Assembly (NCBI GenBank): GCA_030390025.1
Contig: CM059431.1
Span: 112,718,001 to 112,778,000, forward strand
DNA from: Squalus acanthias
Lineage: Eukaryota
Reading direction: 5' to 3'
Length of the DNA stretch: 60,000 nucleotides
Part shown: positions 6,301 to 51,200 of the stretch, one piece after another
Position numbering within the stretch: position 1 is the first letter of the stretch
How the letters are laid out: every line of letters starts with the position of its first letter
Translations under genes and position numbers: made by a program
The notes under the pieces: generated by a model
What the model was told of the DNA's origin: nothing
Seen by the model: only the letters and a program-made list of their open reading frames with translations
Databases searched by the model: none

Positions 6301-9300
6301 GAGAGGAGCGATGCTATGGCTGAAAAATTAACTTCCAATGGTGTCCTGGAAAGGGACATGCAGTAATCTGGAGTCAGAGGAACAATGAGTGCGAGTTGGT
6401 AACAAAAACAAGGAGCCCCTTGAGCTCAGTGACGGCAGGGCTGATGGGTGCTGCAGAGTTCTTTGAGAGAGCAATACAAAAATGCATTTGATAAAAATCA
6501 ATCCTCGAGGAAAAGGTAGCGAGAATATTACATGCAGTGTCCAATCCAACACAAATTTTATTCATTAGCCTCTGTTCACTGTGTACATCAATGATTTGGA
6601 TATAGGACAAGAGGGAGCGGTGTCTAAATATATTTGAGACTGTACTAAATAGGAGGCATAGTAAATCATTCTGTAGAACCCAAATGAAGCTGGAAGGGGA
6701 TATTGATAATATAGAGAATCAACAAAAAAAGGTATATGGAATTCAATGTCAATAAATAGGTGGTACATTTTGGTAAAAAAAAAATTAAATAATTATACGT
6801 TGAATTGCGGGGGGTGGGAAGCTGGATAATGTGGAAGAATTAGGAGGTTCTGGTTCTGAAGATATTAAAAGCAGCACCTCAGGTCGATGAAGTCATAAGA
6901 ATGCTGAAGGAATACTAGGTTTTAGGAACACAGGTATGGATTCACTTGGATGCTGTCCACTATGATAAATAAATACAAATACAAAAATGGAGCAGTTCTT
7001 ACTAGAACGGAGGAGATTAAGGGATGATTTGGTATGAAGGACAGAGCAGATAGAAACAGACAGTTTCCAGTAATTGAGGGGTCTAGGGACATGGATACAA
7101 GATGCAAGAGATTTAGGACACAGAGCAGAATGTTTTTCTTTTACACAGATTTGAGGCAGTGGAATTCATGGTTGAAGCAGAGACCATGTCAATATTTAGA
7201 GGAGCTTAGATAGGTAGTTGAAGGGGGGCTATCAACATATGGGAACATAATAACATAAGAGAACATAATAACATAAGAATAGGAACAGGAGTAGGCCATT
7301 TGGCCCTTCGAGCCTGCTCCGCCATTCAATAAGATCATGGTTGATCTTCTACCTCACCTCCACTTTCCTGCACTATCCCCATATGCCTGGATTCCCTTAA
7401 TATTCAAAAAACTATTGATCTCTGTCTTGAATATACTCAACGACTGAGCTTCCACAGCCCTCTGGGGTAGAGAATTCCAAAGATTCACCACCCTCAGTGA
7501 AGAAATTTCTCCTCATCTCAGTCCTAAATGGCCGACCAATTATTCTGAGACTGTGACCCCTGGTTCTAGACTCCCCAGCCAGGGGAAACATCCTCCCTGC
7601 ATCTACCCTGTCAAGCCCTGTAAGAATTTTGTATGTTTCAATGAGATCACCTTTCATTCTTCTAAACTCTAGAGAATATAGGCCTAGTCTACTCAATCTG
7701 TCCTCATAGGACAATCCCCCCCTCCCAGGAAACAATCTGGTGAACCTTCGTTGCGCTCCCTCTATGGTAAGTATATCCTTCCTTAGGTAAAGAGATCAAA
7801 ACTGTACACAATACCCCAGGTGTGGTCTCAGAGCGGCGGCGGACCTGCGGGGAACCAGGCGGCGGCGGCGAGGTTTAAGAGGCGGCAGAGACCAGGTAGG
7901 CCTCAGAGCGGCGGCGGACCTGCGGGGAACCAGGCGGCGGCGGCAAGGTTTAAGAGGCGGCAGAGACCAGGTAGGCTTACCAATCTCCGAGCTTGGAGGG
8001 AGAGAAGTAAAAAGTAATCGAAGTGTGACGTCACCAGAAAGCAGGTAAGTAATTGGTTGGTGAGTATTTCTCTCTTTTTAAACTTAAACTCTGTGGTTTA
8101 TAGTTTCTAAGCTCTCTGTGGTGTAGCGGGGACTGTTGGTAAACCAGGGCCCTTAAGTATATCATTTAACTGTAGTGCAATTGGTGGGATTGATTTGTTT
8201 TAATTTAATTTGAATTAATTAAAGGGTAAGTCATGGCAGGAGAGCTCGGCCCCGTGGTATGCTCCTCCTGTGTATTGTGGGAAATCAGGGACCCTTCCGG
8301 TGTCATTGACAACCATGTGTACGGGAAGTGTATCCAGCTACAGCTACTGGCAGACCGCATTACGGCGCTGGAGCTGCGATTGGATGCTTATTGGAGCATT
8401 CGCGATGCTGAGAACCTCCTGAATAGCACGTTTAGCAAGTTGGTCACACCGCAGGCAAAGGGTGTACAGGCAGGAAGTAAATGGGTGACCACCAGGCAGA
8501 GTAAGAGGTGCAGGCAGGTAGTGCAGGGGTCCCATGTGGACATCCCCCTCTCAAACAGATATACCACTTTGAATACTGTTGGGGGGGATGACTTATCAGG
8601 GGAAGGCAGCAGCAGCCAACTTCCTGGCACCATGGGTGGCTCTGCTGCACAGGCTGGGAGGAAAAAGTGTGGAAGAGCTATAGTGATAGGGGACTCAATT
8701 GTAAGGGGAATAGATAGGCGTTTCTGCGGCTGCAACCGAGACTCCAGGATGGTGTGTTGCCTCCCTGGTGCAAGGGTCAAGGACGTCTCGGAGCGGCTAC
8801 AGAACATTTTGGAGGGGGAGGGCGAACAGCCAGCTGTCGTGGTGCACATAGGCACCAACGATATAGGTAAAAAAGGGGATGAGGTCCTAAAAGCAGAATA
8901 TAGGGAGTTAGGAGGTAAATTAAAAAATAGGACCTCAAAGGTAGTAATCTCAGGATTGCTACCAGTGCCACGTGCTAGTCAGAGTAGAAATAGGAGGATG
9001 TTTCAAATTAATACGTGGCTAGAGGAATGGTGCAAGGGGGAGGGATTCAAATTCCTGGGACATTGGAACCGGTTCTGGGGGAGGTGGGACCAGTACAAAC
9101 CGGACGGTCTGCACCTGGGCAGGGCCGGGACCGCTGTCCTAGGGGGAGTGTTTGCTAGTGCTGTTGGGGAGGGTTTAAACTGAAGTGGCAGGGGGTTGGG
9201 CACCTGAGCAGGGAGACAGAGGAAAGCGCGTCAGGAAGGGACAGAAGGTATGGAGTAAAAGGTAAAGTGTTAAAAAAGGAAAAAGCAGGAACTAAGTGTC

Positions 9301-12300
9301 ACAAAACATATTTGAAAGTTATTTATCTGAATGCACGTAGCATTCGTAACAAAATAGACGAGTTAACGGGACAAATAACTACGTATGGGTATGATCTTGT
9401 GGCCATTACAGAAACATGGCTGCAGGGTGACAACGACTGGGAACTAAATATGCCAGGGTATTTAACAATCAGGAAGGACAGGCAGGAAGGAAGGGGAGGT
9501 GGGGTGGCTATGTTAATAAAGGAAGGAATCACTGTAATACAGAGAAATGATATTGGGTCAAAGGATCAGGATAATGAAACAGTTCGGGTGGAGATAAGGA
9601 ATAATAAGGGGAAAAAAAACACTAGTGGGAGTAGTATATCGGCCTCCTAATAGTTGCAACTCTGCTGGAAGAAGTATTAATCAGGAAATAGTTGGGGCAT
9701 GTAATAAGGGAACAGCTATAATTATGGGGGATTTTAACCATCATATTAACTGGACAAATCAAATTGGGCAGGGCAGCCTTGAGGAAGAGTTTATTGAGTG
9801 TATTAGGGATGGATTTCTTGAGCAGTATGTAACTGATCCTACAAGGGGGCAAGCAACCTTGGACCTGGTCCTGTGTAATGAGTCAGGATTAATTAATAAT
9901 GTCCTAGTTAAGGATCCCCTTGGAATGAGTGACCATAACATGGTTGAATTCCATATCCAATTAGAGGGTGAGAAGGTTGGTTCTCAAACAAGCGTACTGA
10001 GCTTGAATAAAGGAGACTATGATGGTATGAGAGCGGAATTGATTAAAGTGGACTGGGAAAATAGATTAAAGGGTAAGACGGTACATGAGCAGTGGTGTTC
10101 ATTTAAGGAGTTATTTTACAACTTTCAAAAGAAATATATTCCACTGAGGAAAAAAGGGTGTAAAAGAAATGACAGCCATCCATGGCTAAGTAAAGAAATT
10201 AAGGATAGTATCCGACTAAAAACAAGGACATATAAGGTAGCCAACTAGTGGAGGATAGAAGATTGGGAAGTCTTCAAAAGACAGCAAAAAGTAACTAAAG
10301 GATTGATTAAGAAAGGGAAGATAGATTATGAAAATAAATTAGCAAAAAATATAAAAACAGATAGCAAGAGTTTCTATAGTTATATAAAAAGAAAAAGGGT
10401 GGCTAAGGCAAACGTAGGTCCCTTAGAGGATGAGACCGGGAAATTAATGGTGGGAAACATGGAGATGGCAAAAATGCTGAACAAATATTTTGTTTCAGTC
10501 TTTACGGTAGAGGACACTAAGAATATCCCAACACTGGACAAACAGGGGGCTCTAGGGGGGGGGGGGGAGGAGATAAATACGATTAAAATTACTAAGGAAT
10601 TGGTACTCAGTAAAATAATGGGACTCAAGGCGGATAAATCCCCTGGACCTGATGGCTTACATCCTAGGGTCTTGAGGGAAGTGGCAGTAGGGATTGTGGA
10701 TGCTTTGGTAATAATTTTCCAAAATTCCCTGGACTCAGCAAAGGTCCCGGCAGATTGGAAAACTGCTAATGTAACACCCTTATTTAAAAAGGGTAGTAGG
10801 CAGAAGGCTGGAAATTATAGACCAGTTAGCCTAACATCTGTGGTGGGTAAAATTTGGGAGTCTATTATTAAGGAGACAGTAACGGAACATTTAGATAAAC
10901 ATAATTTAATAGGACAAAGTCAGCATGGCTTTATGAAGGGGAAGTCATGTCTGACAAATTTGCTCGAGTTCTTTGAGGACATAACGTACAGGGTGGATAA
11001 AGGGGAACCAGTGGACGTAGTGTATTTAGACTTCCAGAAGGCATTCGACAAGGTGCCACATAAAAGATTATTGCTCAAGATAAAAAATCACTGGATTGGG
11101 GGGAATATTCCGGCATGGGTGGAGGATTGGTTATCTAACAGGAAGCAGAGAGTTGGGATAAATGGTTCATTCTCGGACTGGCAACCAGTAGCCAGTGGTG
11201 TTCCGCAGGGGTCGGTGCTGGGTCCCCAACTCTTTACAATCTATATTAACGATTTGGAGGAGGGGACCAAGTGTAACATATCAAAGTTTGCAGATGATAC
11301 AAAGATGGGAGGGAAAGTAGAAAGTGAGGAGGACATAAAAAACCTACAAGGGGATATAGACAGGCTGGGTGAGTGGGCGGAGATTTGGCAGATGCAATAC
11401 AATATTGGAAAATGTGAGGTTATGCACTTTGGCAGGAAAAATCTGAGAGCAAGTTATTATCTTAATGGTGAGAAACTGGAAAGTACTGCAGTACAAAGGG
11501 ATCTGGGGGTCCTAGTGCAAGAAAATCAAAAAGTTAGTATGCAGGTGCAGCAGGTGATCAAGAAGGCCAACGGAATGTTGGCTTTTATTGCTAGGGGGAT
11601 AGATTATAAAAACAGGGAGGTATTGCTGCAGTTATATAGGGTATTGGTGAGACCGCACCTGGAATACTGCATACAGTTTTGGTGTCCATACTTAAGAAAA
11701 GACATACTTGCTCTCGAGGCAGTACAAAGAAGGTTCACTTGGTTAATCCCGGGGATGAGGGGGTGGACATATGAGGAGAGGTTGAGTAGATTGGGACTCT
11801 ACTCATTGGAGTTCAGAAGAATGAGAGGCGATCTTATTGAAACATATAAGATTGTGAAGGGGCTTGATCGGGTGGATGCGGTAAGGATGTTCCCAAGGAT
11901 GGGTGAAACTAGAACTAGGGGGCATAATCTTAGAATAAGGGGCTGCTCTTTCAGAACTGAGATGAGGAGAAACTTCTTCGCCCAGAGGGTAGTAGGTCTG
12001 TGGAATTTGCTGCCCCAGGAAGCTGTGGAAGCTACATCATTAAATAAATTTAAAACAGAAATAGATAGTTTCCTAGAGGTAAAGGGAATTAGGGGGTACG
12101 GTGAGCAGGCAGGAAATTGGACATGAGGCTGAGTTCGGATCGGTCAGGGCCCTGTGGGTGGCGGAGCGGGCCCAGGGGGCCGGGTCCTGCTCCTACTTCT
12201 TGTGTTCTTTAGATTTGAGGTTAGGATCAGATCAGCCATGATCTTATTGAATGGCGGAGCAGGCTCGAGGGGCCGAATGGCCTACTCCTGCTCCTATTTC

Positions 12301-15300
12301 TTATGTTCTTACCAGGGCCCTATATAATTGCAGTAAGACGTCTTTACTCTTATACTCAAATCCTCTTGTAATAAAGGCCAACATACCATTTGCTTTCCTA
12401 ATTGCTTGCTGTACCTGCATATTAACTTTGTGATTCGTGTACAAGGACACCCAGATCCCTCTGAACACCAGCATTTCCCAATCTCTCGTCATTTAAAAAA
12501 TACTCTGCTTTTCTATTTTTCCTACCAAAGTGGATAACTTCACATTTCACCACATTAGATTCCATTTGCCATGTTCTTGCCCACTCACTTAGCTTGTCTA
12601 TGTCCCCTTGAAGCCTCCTTGCATCCTCCTCACAGCTTACATTCCCACCCAGCTTTGTACCATCAGCAAACTTGGATATATTACCTTTGGTCCACTCAGC
12701 CAAATCACTGATGTAGATTGTGAATAGCTGAGGCCCAAGCACTGATCCTTGCGGTACCCCACTAGTTACAGCCTGCCAACCGGAAAGTGACCAGTTTATT
12801 CCTATTCTCTGTCCGTTAACCAATCCTCAATCCATGCTAGTATATTACCCCCAATTCCATGAGCCCTAATTTTGTTTAATAACATAAGAACATAAGACGT
12901 AGGAGCAGGAGTAGGTCATGTGGCCCCTCGAGCCTGCTCCGCCATTCAGTAAGATCATGGCTGATCTGATCTTGGCCTCAACTCCACTTCCCTGCCCGCT
13001 CCCCATAACCCTCGACTCCCTCACCATTCAAAAATCTGTCTATCTCCACCTTAAATATATTCAATGACCCAGCCTCCACAGCTCTCTGGGGAAGAGAATT
13101 CCAAAAAGATTCACGACCCTGAGAGAAGAAATTCCTCCTCATTTCCGTTTTAAATGGGTGCCCCCTTATTCTGAAATTATGCCCCCTAGTTCTAGATTCC
13201 CCCACGAGGGGAAACATCCTCCCTGCATCTACCTTGTCAAGCCCATTCAGAATCTTATATCTCTCTCATGTGGCACCTTATCAAATGCCTTCTCAAAATC
13301 CAAATACACCACATCCACTGGTTCCCCCTTATCTATTCTGCTAGTTACAACCTCAAAAATTTCTAACAGATTTGTCAAACACGATTTCCCTTTCATAAGT
13401 CCTATTATTATTTTCTAAGTGCCCCGTTACCACGTCCTTATTAGATTCTAGAATTTTCCCTACTACTGACGTCAGGTTAACTGGTCTGTAGTTCCCCATT
13501 TTCTCTCTCCCTCCTTTCTTAAATAGTGGGGTTACATTTGCTACCTTCCAATCCGCAGGAACCGTTCTAGAATCTGTGGAATTTTGGAAAATGACAACCA
13601 ATGCATCCACTATCTCTATAGCCACCTCTTTCAAAACCCTAGGATGTAGGCCATCAGGTCCAGGGGATTTATCAGCTTTCAGTCCCATTAATTTCTCCAG
13701 TACTATTTTTTTTTACTAATACTAATTTCTTTCAGTTCCTCATTCTTGGTTCTCCACTATTTCCGGGAAGTTTTTTACGTCTTCTTCCGTGAAGACAGAG
13801 AGAGAGGCTGGAATTTTGCCGGCGCTCAGAGTGCGGGTTTGGAGGCGGGACGCTGTCAAAATCGCAAAGATTGACAGCGGGTAGGAAACCCGCTGTCAAC
13901 CCACCTCCAATTACTCTTCCCAAGTGTCGGGTCCCCGATTTGCGCATGGACCAGACACCTAGCAGCGGAAAGAGGATTATAGCCACTTAACTGCCTGTTA
14001 ACAGGTACTTGATAGTTGTTAACAGACTCTTTTTCAATTTTGCCACTTCTGCCTCGGGTTTCCCGACGTCCGGACACCACGCCAGGTAAGTGTGGCGTGT
14101 TGTGAGTCTGCTGTAATGTTTCTGCATTGATGACAGCTGCAGAAGTGGTGTGAAGGATCCAATGGTACACTGGTGAGTTTCAGAGGTAAGAAAATGTTGG
14201 GAAAATCATTTTTAATGCATTTACACTTTTCTGTAGGTAACAAGTTTTGAATCGGATGTCTAGTCCCATCTCATTGGGAGAATCTCTCACCAGTGACAGA
14301 TCGCTTCTGTAACCTCACCTGCAGCTGCCATCTGTTCTAGCCTAAGGAGGGAGTCACTGGGTGCAAGAGCTCAGTTTTGTACAGTGATTGTCAGTGTTTG
14401 CAGCACCTCAATGCTGTCAAACACTGAGATATGAGCTGTCAAAAAAAAATTGTGCGTGGTCCCTTTAAGAAAACCGGCAGATGTCACGTCATCAAATGAC
14501 GTCATCTGACCGGCTTCCTCTTAACTGGCTAGCAAGCCCGCAGGCGGGCTTAACAAGGGTAATCGACGTAAAATCACGTCCATGGGCCGGATGCAGTTGG
14601 GGGCGGGACTGGAACCCGGAAACCAGCTGACCCGCACCCAATGACAAAATCGCGGCCAAAGTATTTGTTTAATTTCTCTGCCATTTCCTTATTCCCCATT
14701 ATAATTTCTCCTGTCTAACCCTGTAAGGGACCCACATTTACTTTTGCTAATCTTTTCCTTTTTACACACCTAGAGATGCTTTGAGTCTGTTTTTATGTCT
14801 CTCGCTAGTTAACTCTCATTCTATTTTCCCTTTCATTGTCAATTTCTTGGTCCTCCTTTGCTGAATTCTGAAATCCTCCCAATCCTCAGGCTTGCTACTC
14901 TTTTTGGCAACATTATAAGCCTCTTTCTTTGATGTATCATCATCTTTACCTTCTCTTGTTAGTCACGGTTGGCCCACTTTTCCTGTGGGGTTTTTGTGCC
15001 TTAAAGGAATGTATATTTGTTGTAAATTATGTATTAATTCTTTAAATGCTAGCCATTATCTACCGACATACCTTTTAATGTAGTTTCCCAATCTACTGTA
15101 GCCAACTCGCTCCTCATACCTATATAGTTTACTTTGTTTAGATTTAAGACCCTAGTTTCAGATTTAACTAAATCACTTTCAAACGCAATATAAAATTCTA
15201 TCATATTATGGTCACTCTTCCCTACAAGGTTATTAATTAACCCTTTCTCATTGCACAATACTAGATCTAAAATAGCCTGTTCCCTAGTTGGTTCCTCAAC

Positions 15301-18300
15301 ATACTGATCTAGAAAGCTATCTTGCATACATTCCATGAATTCGTCCTCCACACTATTAATGCAAATTTGGTTTGCCCAGTCTATGTAGATTAAAGTCGCC
15401 CATGATTACTGTATTACCCTTGTTACATGCACCTCTAATTTCCTGATTTATACTCTGCCCTACATTATAACTACTGGTTGGGGGCCTATAAACAACTCCC
15501 ACCAATGTTTTCTGCCCCTTGCTGTTTCTTAGCTCCACCTAAACTGATTCTACTTGATTTTCGGAGCCAAGCTCCTTTCTCTCTACTGTCTTTATCCCAT
15601 CCTTTATCAGAGCTACACCTTCTCCTTTTCCGTTTTGCCTATCTCTTCTAAAAGGTAAGTATCCTGGAATATTTAGTTCCCAACCTTGGCCACTTTGCAA
15701 CCATGTCTCCGTTATGGCTATTAGATCAAACCTGTTACTTTCTATCTGCGCTATTAATTCATCTATTTTGTTGTGAATGCTTCGCGCATTCAGATATAGT
15801 ACCTTTAGCTTTGACTTATTTCTATTTTCTCCTGATGCCTTATTACCTTTGTTACGCTCTGTCCCTTCCTGACCCATACTGCTTAGTTTTACCCAAAACT
15901 CTGCTCTAGAGCCTTGACATTTCTCTTGCTGCTTTTAAATTTACTCTTTCCTGAAGCCTCCCACCCCACCTTCATTAGTTTAAAGCCCTGTCTACTGCCC
16001 TAGTTATTCGGTTGGCCAGGACACTGGTCCCAGGGAACATAGCAGGCACATGGGAATAGAACTACTGCTCGTGTGAAAGAAAAACACAACCAGCTGGGTC
16101 GATCTGTCTGTTCCTTGCTGTCATTTCTATGTAATTTGGGTACTAGTACAGATTTAAAAATTGAATTGTAAAAAGTGAGAAAGTGTGCAAGACTGCATCA
16201 ATTTTACTACGGGTTAGTACCTGTGATTAATTCATTTTGGATATCAGTACATGAACTAGTACTAGTCTACTGATGCTATTTCAAATAATTCAAGGGAATC
16301 AAGTCACCGGTTATAAACTGGTTTGATCAATGAAAACTTCACTTTAAACGTAGATTGCACATATACCTTGCAGCACAGTCATATGCCAGGACATCAGTTT
16401 CTGCCAGTAGGTCACCATCAGTTTCATGATCTCCTCCATCAGGACCCAGCTCAAACAACTAGTAAAAAAAAAATTCCAGTAATGTCAAAGTATACTTTAT
16501 ATTTTCAATTTAGGTTGTTGTATTCCTCTTTTTTTTTAAAAAAAAACCAAGCAAGCACCATACCATCAGTGCAGCTTCTATGTTAAACCACCAAGTGGCA
16601 TGCTTGAACAAACCATAATCAGATCCAATTTTCTTTCATTTCCTCAGATAACCCAGCAAAATCCAAATTGCCCCCAGGGTATCAGAAGGGATGCCTTCTG
16701 CTGTTGTACAAGCTGTACTTGTACTAATCCAGTACTCGTACCATCTGTCCCCAATTTGTATAGTTACTATCCTTTTAATGGGAATTTAGGACTACCTGCT
16801 GCTGACAAAGCAAGAATAGAACATGCTTGAATTGCATTTAATTTGGTTACAAAGAAATATGAACTTTTATTAATACAAAAGCAAAATACTGCGGATGCTG
16901 GAAATCTGAAATAAAAACAGAAAATGCTGGAAATACTCAGCAGGTCAGGCAGCATCTGTGGAGAGAGAAGCAGAGTTAACGTTTCAGGTCGATGACCCTT
17001 CATCAGAATTGGATTAGGCACTTTACAGCCTTCTGGACTCAACATCGAGTTCAACAATTTCAGACCATAACCTCTGCCCCTATCTTTTCTTTCTTTCTCC
17101 CACATGGCAGCTGTCTTTCATTCTGCCATTGCCATTTACACTTCATCTGAGCCATCTTTTGTTTCTTAACTTATCCCATTACCATCTCCTTTTGCCTTGC
17201 ACCATCATCCCTTTTGTCTCTTAATCTCTCCTGCCTTCCATCCTATCACAGACCTTCCCTTTTATTCTTTCCTCCCCACCCCTACCCCTGCACTTGCTTA
17301 AAAACCTGTTCCATCTCCAGCTTTTTCCAGTTCTGACGAAGGGTCATCAACTTGAAACGTTAACTCTGGGGGGGGGGGGGGGGGGGGGGGGGGGTGTTTC
17401 TCTCTCTCCACAGATGCTGCCTGACCTGCTGAGTATTTCCAGCATTTTCTGTTTTTATTTTTGAACTTTTATTAGTTGCTTTGCTAGTTAACTCACCTTT
17501 ATTTTTGCTGTGTATTCACCTCTCCCACCAAACAGGCCAAGACCTCCAAGTAGTATGTCTGTATCTGCACAAAAGCGAATGGCTTCCACAGAATGAGCAG
17601 AATACCCCCAGCCACCTCCATGGCCTAAACGTTAATAGCAGATACAAATATAGTTAATACAAATTGCTTGTCAGAAGCTAAAACAAAGATAAAAGAAAGT
17701 AAATTTATTTTTATATATATATAAAAACCTACTTTCAAATCTATTAACCACACTATAGTCTTCTTTGGAATATACTTTAGTAACTGCTTGTATCTCCTCC
17801 TCTGTATTAGTGACTCCCATTTTCAGGTCCTGCATAACAGCCAATGTGTCCAAACAACCTGTTTTAATATTTGAAAAGAATTATTCAGGAAAATAAATAC
17901 TTCACACTTTGCACCCACTGACAGTATTGGACTGAGGAATTTAGTTCAGATGATACATAATTATTGTTTACTATATTTTTACTTCCTCCTCCCAAAAAAT
18001 GCACAATTAGAACATGTCCATTCATAACAATCCTAAACTAAGTAATCATAAGTTGTGGGACTTTACAAAAGCTGAATGCTCACATATTGATGGTAAGGCC
18101 CAATTTCACTGAATGAACATGTAAAGAAAACTGGAGATCAAAAATATATTAACTGCAATGTAAGAAATTTCAGCATTACTCAAGAATGGCATGCAAATTA
18201 AAAGGTGCCATGATCTTCATTTCATGAAAAGTTAGTTCAGTAATCACTTACATATACCAAATAATATGAGGTCGACTACTGTTGTGCAAGTTAAAAATCC

Positions 18301-48231: not shown

Positions 48232-51200
48232 ACAAAATCTCCAACAATAATTAAAATCTGAAGGAATGAGACTCCACGTTTTTAAAAGTAATTTTTCAGT
48301 GCAAAGAGGCTGTTTGGCAGTAATCATGACTTATCACGCTGTTAAAAATTCACTTACACTTCAATGGACAAGCCCTATCATTTTTTGGTATATTTAGTGG
48401 ATATCTGTTGGATAAGTACCACAGTTTCACACCCTTCCATGTGTTTGAATGCCGAGTCTGTCAGTGAGACACCGGTGTAGCAAAGCTTCTGGAGGAGCAG
48501 GGTGACTCGAACAGCAACTTCCTGATTTCCACGTTCAACTGTGCATGTGCAGATGCCGGAAGTTGCTGTCCGATTTACTCTTTAATAACAGTCAGCGCTG
48601 GTAGCCTCACTGTTATTCTTCCTGCAAAATCCGGTCCATTGTGTCAGACAGCAGTAGAAAGTAGAAATTATAAGATCTGTTCCTTCAGAAAATGAGCATT
48701 GTACTAGGCCCGATGATTTAGGTTTTCAGCCCATACTGTTACACTATTGCAGTAATAAAGGACAGCTTTATTATAGTATTGACGCTACATAACTAAAACA
48801 ATTAGAAACACTAGTTCTGCACATTCCACCTGCGCCCGCTATCTCCCCCTTTTGCTTTAGTTTTAAATTTTTAATTCTTCCCCCCCCCACCCCAACTTAT
48901 ACTTTCTTTTCTAATCCTAAAAAATCTTTTCATTCGTCTTGTTTCTTTTTCCTTCTGGCTTCCAATGAGAGTTTTGGAGATGGATGCAACTTTTAAAAAA
49001 TGAGTTTTCATGAACTGAAAACACTTAATAGTCTTTTGTAAGTAAGTCAGTCACGTCGGCAGTTCACACAACTATTGCGAGACAAGCTTTAAAATGGTAT
49101 GGGGTCCCACTGTTTCTCCACACCCCCCTCCCCTCATTTCAATAGCCCCGCTTATTCATTTCGATGTAGAATCTGAATAAATGAGTTGCATCATGATTGT
49201 TTCAAACATTTCACAAACACAGCAGTTAATAAAAATTATAACGCAATTATTTTAAAAAAGACTGAGAAAAGGTACAATCTCTGAACAAAAATTCCAACAG
49301 ATGGGCATGACAATGGATTCTTTTGACTTCGCATTCTGGACCTACCATGTTTTTTTTCTTTACAATGGATTAATTACCAGACCAAAATGACTCAATCCAT
49401 AAAGTGGACCATAATTGACAAACACAAATCATTTTGAACTCATTACTTAATACAAGATACAAAAACATGGCCAATCACTCGCTTAAGCCTTTGCTATAAT
49501 ATTACATGCCATTATAAAAATGTTACTATTTGTAATAGTTGCATGGCAGATTTACCAAACCTGTACACAGTGGTGGAAGAAGTAAAGTTTGTGCCTTAAA
49601 TTAGCAATACAGAAGTCATCACAGGCACATACAGGCAAAGGAAAAGAAAAATCAACTTGCTACCCATGTACATTCTATGTTGGCTGGCTGTAGGGAAAGA
49701 TCATCAAAATGGAGTAGGCTTCTGTCCATCATAGACGAGTACATGATCAATGAACAAAAGCCTAAAAAATACTGTTGGCTACATTAGCAGATGAATGGTT
49801 AATGTGCTCATATGACTTCCTATGCCCACTATTTTAGCAGAGGCATTAATTCATTTAAAATAAATGGATTAACACCACGTCCAAATAGAGGACAAAAGAA
49901 CGTCATACTATTAACCAGTCATTAACTGACATCGCCAACAGTAACTTCTAGGCTTTATTTTTTTTTAATAAAATGAGTCAAGAAACATAACTATTTCTAC
50001 ACATACCTTTCCATTAGCAGTTTTCATTAGTGCAAACTCTCTGCCAGCTCCTACAACAGCTGACTCCTCATCAAATCCTGTACCTGATAAAAATGAACAC
50101 TTGTCAGGACTTCAGTATATTCATATAATGCAAAAAGATTTTTTACATAGACTTAATAAATGCTAGAAATTTATCGGGTATTGACTGCATAGCACCTAAG
50201 TTTTGTCAGCGTGAGGAGCTACCATGAAATTTGTAATGCTGTGTATAGAAAATGAGTCAACACCCATGTGCAAATAGCAAAGGATGTTTAAATACAGACA
50301 CATTAACCATTCAATAACATTGCCAATAGAAATTTCTATTGGCATTTTTTGAAAAATAAAGATAGACAAAACAGAGCTATTTCTATATATCCCTTTCTAT
50401 TAGCGGTTTATCTATTGGAAAATCATGTTTAAAAGTGCCAACCTTCATAATCAGTTACGCCTGTACGTGATGCTGTGATATGGCGTTTTCAACGTTAAAT
50501 GTCACGTAATGTTACCGGTGTAGCGACAGCTATGGCGTGAAGTGGCGGCTGACGAGGTCACATGGTCGGCAGCAGCGCAAAAGAGCAGGCGGCCGATGGG
50601 TCACATGGTCGGGCCAGCACGAATCATCTTGTGGCGCGAAGAAACAGACGGCATGGGTCACGTGGTCGGCGGTAACACGAAGCAGAAGAGAGGAGCTCAG
50701 GGAGCACAGGTCCAGGGAGCTCGTGAGAGATGCAAGAAGAGGGGAACGATAGAGAAGGGGTAGCTCGGGGGCAGGATGCAATGCAATAGAAACAAAGAGG
50801 GTAAAAGAGAAGCAGACTAAGAGGTGCAGGGTAAGAGAGAGAAAATGCAGAGTAAAAGAGGGGAGTAGAGCAACGCAACAACTGAAGATCTCCTCATTGT
50901 CACGGGCCTGAGAGTATTGTTATACATTATATGTAATTGTGTTCTGTAATAAACAAGTTGCCACATTTAATTGACTATCTAAACTTATGTAGGATAATTA
51001 TTAAAGTGTAAGATTAATAAAAAGGATTTCAGAACCAATGACGAATAGAGTTTAGTGATTAACAAACAGCAATTAATCAGGCCCCAGCTGAACCTTATGG
51101 GAGAGAGATTCTCTTTAGGCTAAAACAGTAGCTGATAGTACACTTGAGAATTAATGGTTAAAAACAAGCTGAGTCACCACACAGTTGCAAATTACAGCTT

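Follow-up and report, generated by a model that had tools for sequence, protein, structure and literature searches.

A conserved heptamer, stop codon and G tract at the ORF1–ORF2 junction of CR1 retrotransposons: a candidate site of programmed −1 ribosomal frameshifting

A CR1 element of Squalus acanthias and its ORF1–ORF2 junction

We analysed a 60,000-nucleotide stretch of the Squalus acanthias genome (3.7 Gb), referred to below as the window. The same genome was searched for further copies and families. A long interspersed nuclear element (LINE) of CR1 type spans positions 8233–12126 on the plus strand of the window. The element has a pair of open reading frames (ORFs); the subject of this work is the junction between them. 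The ORFs are arranged as follows.

8233..9183, plus strand: ORF1, 316 amino acids (aa), of the SGNH/GDSL esterase type, with the tail ..AVGEGLN followed by TGA (ORF list, Pfam)
9159..12126, plus strand: ORF2, encoding an apurinic/apyrimidinic endonuclease and a reverse transcriptase (RT); broken by a frame change near 9614–9621 and a stop at 10246–10248 (ORF list, Pfam, copy comparison)

In Pfam, ORF1 matches Lipase_GDSL_2 (PF13472, E = 1.1e-12), and is thus of the esterase type expected for a LINE of the CR1 group. The esterase is described as the sole ORF1 type identified in CR1 and L2 (PMC13343379). The name CR1, as opposed to L2, relies on an initial annotation of the window and on the relatives of ORF1. 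Pfam identifies three ORF2 domains, PF03372 (Exo_endo_phos), PF14529 and PF00078 (RVT_1), in that order; the endonuclease precedes the RT, as it should. The ORF list shows ORF2 in three pieces (9159–9650, 9598–10248 and 10249–12126), and the window copy is dead. A run of eight A near 9614–9621 (seven in three of the four copies shown, and six in one) is the cause of the first stop in the ORF2 frame, at 9648. The second in-frame stop is at 10246–10248. Thus, the initial annotation, which had ORF2 running into the endonuclease without a stop, was correct as far as the endonuclease, but the window copy is broken further on.

The 3′ end of ORF1 reads GAG GGT TTA AAC TGA. The features of the junction are listed below, all on the plus strand.

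9156..9158: TAG in the −1 frame, five codons 5′ of the conserved heptamer; the upstream limit of the zone in which the frame could change
9171..9177: G_GGT_TTA, the first in-phase heptamer, confined to lineages with Gly at that position
9174..9180: T_TTA_AAC, the conserved in-phase slippery heptamer, in ORF1 phase
9181..9183: ORF1 stop codon TGA, adjoining the heptamer; in the same position in every lineage
9191..9195: GGGGG run, 10 letters 3′ of the heptamer; the only other conserved letters, and a candidate stimulator
9174..9329: Lys-, Gly- and Glu-rich linker; its 52 codons in the −1 frame include neither a Met nor a stop

The initial annotation had proposed that a −1 programmed ribosomal frameshift joins the two ORFs here. 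It cited the ORF1 ending, the two in-phase heptamers and an ORF2 frame, −1 relative to ORF1, whose open stretch begins at 9159, just past the TAG of 9156; every one of these coordinates was confirmed. Both are established −1 slippery heptamers, U_UUA_AAC in coronaviruses and G_GGU_UUA in the yeast L-A virus. From 9159, the −1 frame continues open into the endonuclease, where the Asn of the YLNARS motif is encoded at 9330–9332 and the Glu of ITETW at 9411–9413. The first ATG in the ORF2 frame of the window is at 9450, beyond both residues. Hence, as had been noted, a protein started at this AUG would lose the catalytic Asn and Glu. In the linker of the window's family there are no stops in the −1 frame, compared with five and three in the other two frames. 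What we observe directly are the sequence features of the junction, with their phase and conservation, and the fact that the −1 frame is coding.

Conservation of the junction cassette

A genome search with a 401-letter query centred on the junction gave at least 2,055 candidates; 40 were scored, all of which were 98–100% identical. The window's family, which we call family A, is young and abundant. We aligned 30 copies, namely the window copy and 29 others. The ten letters GGGTTTAAAC were invariant in all 30 and the heptamer was unchanged; the stop codon was TGA in 21 copies and TAA in nine. The −1 frame was open over all 576 codons available after the heptamer in 8 of the 29 sister copies; ORF2 is thus maintained. 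Apart from one private substitution, no copy of family A had an in-frame Met before the endonuclease motifs.

Other families of the same genome were also considered. Depending on the search, 34,982 to 90,940 first-look CR1 ORF1 candidates were found. Families B, C and D are represented by the 30 loci returned by a Pfam esterase search (34,982 first-look candidates). Their ORF1 is 58–78% identical to that of the window over the best matching segments, and ~62–65% over the full length; the start of their ORF2 is ~35–47% identical. TTTAAAC was followed directly by TAG or TAA in 24 of the 30 loci, and the remaining six had one- or two-letter differences, as expected of decay. ORF2 of these families is likewise in the −1 frame. 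Two more distant shark-type ORF1 proteins, used as queries, identified family F and a young branch of family C, named C2. The ORF1 sequences of families B, C, D and F together are ~40–65% identical to that of family A. The family F junction reads GGC TTTAAAC TAA ATAGTGG GGGGG, and TTTAAAC with a stop was present in all 12 readable junctions (15 loci). The cassette, TTTAAAC-stop-N7-GGGGG, is therefore kept in at least five CR1 families of the genome (A, B, C, D and F). Among the family F copies (L111–L125), the G-run that follows the stop is 5 to 13 G long, and changes in its length break the downstream −1 frame; the run is a frequent site of decay in this family.

We obtained 129 homologues of ORF1, the closest being from sharks and rays. 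The sources, named as in the records, are sharks, rays, chimaera, coelacanth, frogs, turtles, lizards, snakes and alligator. A Leu-Asn C terminus is present in 84 of the 120 homologues listed, from sharks to snakes, and the rest are mostly truncated or chimeric gene models. A 35-sequence alignment of ORF1 has only eight invariant columns, two of which are the terminal Leu and Asn. Distant DNA was found by scanning metagenome contigs. This yielded 50 loci, with ORF1 30–39% identical to that of the window; in 26 the record ends before the ORF1 stop. The cassette was present in 15 of the 24 readable loci; 12 end in phase as ..NNT/G TTA AAC plus a stop, and three (L066, L082 and L091) are displaced by indels. 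The heptamer was TTTAAAC in 14 of these 15 junctions. The 15th has GTTAAAC, a recognised type of shift site. One further readable locus has ATAAAC. In the other eight the cassette is missing; five of these are short or decayed matches, and three (L081, L098 and L100) are ORF1-like genes with a different ending, no cassette and no endonuclease match downstream. TTTAAAC-stop-N7-GGGGG is thus kept in some seven CR1 lineages from metagenome contigs that are far more distant, and the exact pattern occurs in 57 of the 110 loci collected.

Contigs of four related organisms were compared with the window. No variant at a frequency of 5% or more was found within 9166–9181, and the stop codon was TAA, TAG or TGA. 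No junction indels were listed in the contigs from the four runs, contigs being silent on rare indels. The sole linker indel is a 3-letter deletion at 9301, in a contig of a related organism (run X20). This keeps the frame, as expected for coding sequence. The alignment of CR1 junctions suggested in the initial annotation thus has a clear result: TTTAAAC-stop and an open −1 frame are kept in all CR1 lineages sampled at the DNA level.

We next consider what exactly is conserved. In a stack of 19 heptamer-anchored sequences, the conserved letters are TTTAAAC, the T and purines of the stop codon and GGGGG at letters 11–15 after the heptamer. Nothing else, upstream or downstream, is conserved between distant lineages in this stack or in a 12-lineage alignment. 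The in-phase heptamer occurs in every lineage with an intact ORF1 end, and the identity of the stop rotates between TGA, TAA and TAG. Codon usage at other positions provides a control. Among 45 invariant ORF1 residues other than Met and Trp, compared across four lineages, only seven are encoded by one codon throughout. Of the nine Leu residues that are invariant in these lineages, eight use two to four codons; the terminal Leu is TTA in 4/4 and the terminal Asn AAC in 4/4. For the metagenome loci, the control residue Leu295 uses five codons and the terminal pair is TTA AAC in 6/6 aligned cases. Synonymous variation that destroys the heptamer, which the initial annotation had named as evidence against its proposal, was not seen in these comparisons; the TTA and AAC codons are fixed.

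The residue before the Leu varies (Gly, Ala, Ser, Tyr, Cys or His). The last letter of its codon is T in 18 of the 19 sequences, the exception being the GTTAAAC junction. Consistent with this, the preceding residue can be encoded with a final T in 82 of the 84 homologues that end in Leu-Asn. Within the G-run, which straddles codon boundaries, the Gly codon is always GGG. Taken together, these comparisons indicate that the constraint acts on nucleotides or RNA, beyond the protein. The two heptamers fared differently. G_GGT_TTA is absent where the preceding codon is GCT, TAT, TGT, CAT or TCT. Because this heptamer needs a preceding Gly, the conserved element is U_UUA_AAC alone. The first heptamer of the initial annotation is therefore found only where the preceding residue is Gly, whereas the second is conserved. 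The best explanation of these sequences is that the cassette belongs to CR1 LINEs in general, beyond the window copy.

The linker between the heptamer and the catalytic Asn is 39–90 codons long and cannot be aligned between lineages. We counted stops in the linkers of ten lineages (families A, B and C; L061/L065, L062, L063, L066, L069/L071/L079 and L091; and, likewise, family F). There were none in the −1 frame, compared with 1–12 in each other frame. Stops in the −1 frame between heptamer and endonuclease, which the initial annotation had considered damaging to its proposal, are thus absent from the lineages examined. The linkers of family A, L061, L062, L065 and L091 also have no Met. Upstream of the heptamer, stops in the −1 frame occur within 1–14 codons; L080 has two, one codon before. 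Hence, the upstream stops and the open linker confine entry to the ORF2 frame to a few codons centred on the heptamer. Confinement of this sort, at a slippery site, is how frameshift sites are classically recognised in sequence comparisons.

Probable programmed frameshifting and alternative routes to ORF2

The best reading of these data, and one that we consider probable, is programmed −1 ribosomal frameshifting at the conserved CR1 cassette to make an ORF1–ORF2 fusion. From the comparisons above we infer the slip itself, the fusion protein, its ratio to the ORF1 protein (ORF1p) and the role of the G tract. Most ribosomes would terminate at the ORF1 stop and release the esterase ORF1p. A minority would slip back by one letter on U_UUA_AAC, with the transfer RNA (tRNA) for Leu re-pairing on UUU instead of UUA and tRNA-Asn on AAA instead of AAC. 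The abutting stop may contribute to the slip. Slipped ribosomes would read the Lys/Gly-rich linker of 40–90 codons in the −1 frame, and then the endonuclease and RT. The predicted product is an ORF1p–ORF2p fusion of ~1,300 aa, made at a fixed low ratio to ORF1p, as for Gag and Gag-Pol.

Several observations weigh against this reading. Efficient −1 frameshifting in eukaryotes usually needs a downstream RNA structure. We looked for a stable fold in six stretches covering 80–150 letters after the site and found none (z-scores from −0.2 to +0.9 against shuffles). RNAalifold identified no conserved base pairs across 12 lineages, no dedicated pseudoknot program having been run. Run on one subgroup of six sequences, it predicted a weak 8-pair hairpin ~27 letters downstream. 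The stem-loop or pseudoknot 5–9 letters downstream that is typical of canonical −1 sites was not found. A canonical three-tier G-quadruplex motif was present in none of the 19 sequences. As for a C-rich partner for the G-run, the sole CCCCC inside the element lies upstream, within ORF1. Furthermore, the stop abuts the heptamer in every lineage, and plain tandem slippage has no need of this; hence, termination may be involved. Some ORF2 frames do have an AUG ahead of the endonuclease. Families B (..KMGLECMYVNAQS) and C (..SMARLDGIYFNARS) carry an in-frame AUG immediately ahead of it; in family F the AUG is within the linker, and in the bird-like L066, L069 and L079 it is 2–3 letters after the stop. 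There is also a limit to the comparison. The families of the Squalus acanthias genome are unsaturated at synonymous sites, families A and F sharing a codon at about half of identical residues. The within-genome families therefore carry less weight than the distant lineages.

Two candidate structures were rejected. The CAGG/CCTG stem of the initial annotation has the expected letters, but is no more stable than shuffles and is not kept in sister families (family B, for example). A two-tier G-quadruplex is lacking in five of the 19 sequences and, in two more, is at least 40 letters downstream, away from the G-run.

The fold of the downstream stretch, another analysis that the initial annotation had suggested, thus revealed no stable or conserved structure, only a run of five or six G at a fixed 10-letter spacing. 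The G-rich segment noted alongside the stem is real (GGGGG at 9191–9195). A hairpin or pseudoknot is thus unlikely to be the stimulator. The G5–6 tract, exactly 10 letters 3′ of the heptamer, would be placed approximately at the messenger RNA (mRNA) entry of the ribosome and is the candidate for this role. A broader proposal can be made, though only tentatively. All CR1 LINEs may share one ancient, structure-free recoding cassette, consisting of U_UUA_AAC, the abutting stop and the G5–6 tract, with the functional RT being an esterase–endonuclease–RT fusion. The predicted place of action of the G tract is the mRNA channel, at its mouth, where it would work either via a bound protein (a host G-tract binder or ORF1p) or by contact with the ribosome. 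If true, frameshift stimulators would gain a new type, and CR1 would be the first LINE clade with a universal, defined route to the ORF2 protein (ORF2p).

The strongest alternative, although an unlikely one, is entry coupled to termination. A post-termination ribosome, with tRNA-Asn on AAC, would re-pair on AAA or restart nearby without an AUG, to make a separate ORF2p. In its favour, the stop adjoins the heptamer in every lineage, with its identity rotating between TGA, TAA and TAG. The route would also suit the five lineages in which ORF2 has no AUG and the lack of a frameshift-type structure downstream. There are precedents in the AUG-independent start of L1 ORF2 and the stop–start coupling of SART1 (PMC5009743, PMC3894237). 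However, restart needs neither the TTA Leu codon nor the preceding T, yet the whole heptamer is kept. Nor is there a conserved near-cognate start; the −1 codon overlapping the stop is CUG in family A and CUA in most others. Overlap of stop and start is not general, since an AUG is near the stop in only three metagenome copies. Restart after a long ORF has, in addition, been argued to be improbable (PMC3894237). We rank termination-coupled entry below frameshifting because it leaves the first four letters of the heptamer unexplained. The initial proposal, of a −1 shift at the end of ORF1 as the access to ORF2, thus holds for the TTTAAAC-stop and the open −1 frame across lineages, but has the termination-coupled route as a live competitor.

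Initiation downstream of the junction is improbable. Here, an AUG or near-cognate codon in the linker would be reached by leaky scanning, internal entry or reinitiation, and the heptamer would be kept for a non-translational reason. The initial annotation had recognised that an AUG upstream of the endonuclease motifs would count against its proposal. Such AUGs are those described above, before the endonuclease in families B and C, in the linker of family F and after the stop in some bird-like copies (L066, L069 and L079); five lineages have none. Family A, with one private Met in 30 copies, and L061, L062, L065 and L091 have no AUG there. Where AUGs exist, different families have them at non-homologous positions. 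Even when the AUG is 40–60 codons downstream, no stop interrupts the frame between it and the heptamer, and the first AUG of family A (9450) would remove the catalytic Asn and Glu.

A change at the RNA or DNA level is very improbable. Slippage of a polymerase or reverse transcriptase would add a letter near the junction, so that some transcripts carry both ORFs in one frame. Family C2 provides the case for this. It has a run of eight G directly before TTTAAAC, and 12 of the 130 copies scored have open frames of 545–1,290 aa. An extra letter, in or beside the G8 run, is present in 12/12 open copies compared with 0/9 normal copies (junctions L126–L146); the run is G9 in eight of the 12 open copies, and eight letters long in each of the nine ordinary copies. 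Since both local sequence backgrounds include copies with the extra letter, it seems to be recurrent. Hence, in-frame fusions of ORF1 and ORF2 arise repeatedly in the genome. The C2 fusions read exactly as the predicted trans-frame protein, which is no proof that the fusion is functional. Most lineages, however, have no homopolymer at this position, and no junction indel was listed in the contigs of the four runs. A shift made in the RNA would be inherited by new insertions, yet the out-of-frame layout is the rule in all families. Its persistence speaks for a translational mechanism.

The weakest alternative, to which we give almost no credence, is chance, or a need of the ORF1 protein for its C-terminal Leu-Asn with the slippery appearance incidental: Leu-Asn is indeed invariant at the C terminus (35-sequence alignment), but conservation extends to the codon choice, the preceding wobble letter and the G-run in the non-coding sequence beyond the stop, the codon-level controls contradict chance, and TTTAAAC-TRR-N7-GGGGG is expected only 0.02 times in the window by shuffling, where it was found once exactly and once, at a second CR1 junction, with one mismatch.

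A stingray gene model in public databases (P0037, ..ASREGFKLNLQGAG..) passes from ORF1 to the −1 frame precisely at the heptamer and extends into the endonuclease. Either the copy has an indel, or the annotation pipeline corrected the frame.

Relation to known systems and other features of the window

In coronaviruses, a pseudoknot is located ~6 letters downstream of the ORF1a/1b shift site and the 0-frame stop is some codons further on. CR1 resembles this system in having the same in-phase heptamer, the polymerase ORF in the −1 frame and a fusion that would set the product ratio. It differs in that no structure was found, the stop abuts the heptamer and a G5–6 tract is positioned 10 letters downstream. 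The Gag-Pol systems of retroviruses, long terminal repeat (LTR) retrotransposons and L-A are similar to CR1 in having an upstream accessory or structural ORF and a short overlap, with the RT ORF in the −1 frame. Unlike these, CR1 is a non-LTR element, has no protease to split the fusion and has an ORF1 encoding an esterase rather than a capsid protein. The pol ORF is in the −1 frame in 28 of 51 animal LTR elements (PMC5009743).

Among LINEs, TRE5-A and TRE3-A of Dictyostelium are said to need a −1 frameshift (PMC5911963). They belong to another LINE clade and host, and have no sequence in common with the cassette. For mammalian L1, the start of ORF2 is AUG-independent and unexplained; Bombyx SART1 uses UAAUG stop–start coupling (PMC5009743, PMC3894237). 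Both have a bicistronic LINE RNA from which ORF2 is made at low level without a conventional start (PMC5009743, PMC3894237), as is proposed for CR1. L1 differs in having an inter-ORF spacer and no slippery heptamer, and SART1 in having an AUG that overlaps the stop; CR1 has the heptamer, the −1 frame and no conserved AUG.

There is some precedent for the putative role of the G tract. Some known stimulators begin 12–15 letters beyond the shift site and depend on trans-acting factors (PMC5009743). In arteriviruses and cardioviruses, these are a C-rich motif or a hairpin plus a viral protein, whereas CR1 has a G tract and no known binding factor. A G-quadruplex in the RNA 3′ of a slippery site can promote −1 frameshifting (PMC3919603). 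CR1 is also G-rich downstream, but is without the canonical four-tract motif.

A 2013 review described the translation of LINE ORF2 as ‘an interesting and important question’ (PMC3894237). A 2016 review of recoding gives only unexplained cases for non-LTR elements (PMC5009743). The CR1 group is described as comprising the dominant retrotransposons of most vertebrate species (PMC13343379), and a term search of that survey found neither frameshift nor overlap. Our literature search found no paper linking CR1 to frameshifting. Priority is not certain, as older papers on CR1 structure may hold a remark on overlapping ORFs. The cassette is short, sharply defined and deeply conserved, which makes the question of ORF2 translation directly testable. 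If confirmed, frameshifting would supply a rule by which annotators could join CR1 ORFs, and would explain why CR1 ORF2 is often without a start codon. The known frameshift stimulators would then also include a structure-less signal associated with a G tract.

Two further features of the window are listed here.

7827..7976, plus strand: two 75-letter tandem repeats, in the presumed 5′ untranslated region (UTR) of the element (Tandem Repeats Finder: period 75, 2.0 copies, 98% matches)
15963..15984, minus strand: a second, older, 5′-truncated CR1 junction of another family, reading GCT TTA AAC TAA, 7 letters, GGGG (pattern search, one mismatch)

Repeating subunits near the 5′ UTR have been described for some elements of the CR1 group that are without ORF1 (PMC13343379). 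The second junction belongs to a CR1 copy at 15480–16040 (minus strand) with an endonuclease match at 15835–15497; ahead of the endonuclease, a stop and a frame change interrupt its linker. Another one-mismatch match to the cassette (TTAAAAC..), at 48845–48866 on the minus strand, has no ORF1 or endonuclease similarity nearby and is probably due to chance. Additional CR1 RT fragments flank the element at 7412–7795 and 12422–13712 (minus strand). The region is a nest of CR1 insertions.

Finally, CR1 ORF1 is present in public databases under unrelated names (P0007, P0017, P0081, P0082 and P0116). One example is an ‘SGNH/GDSL hydrolase’ assigned to Pseudomonas aeruginosa on a 4 kb contig, which is likely to be contamination. 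Ray isoforms of ribosomal protein S24, TMEM204 and ABHD14A also carry CR1 ORF1, and are likely to be chimeric gene models.

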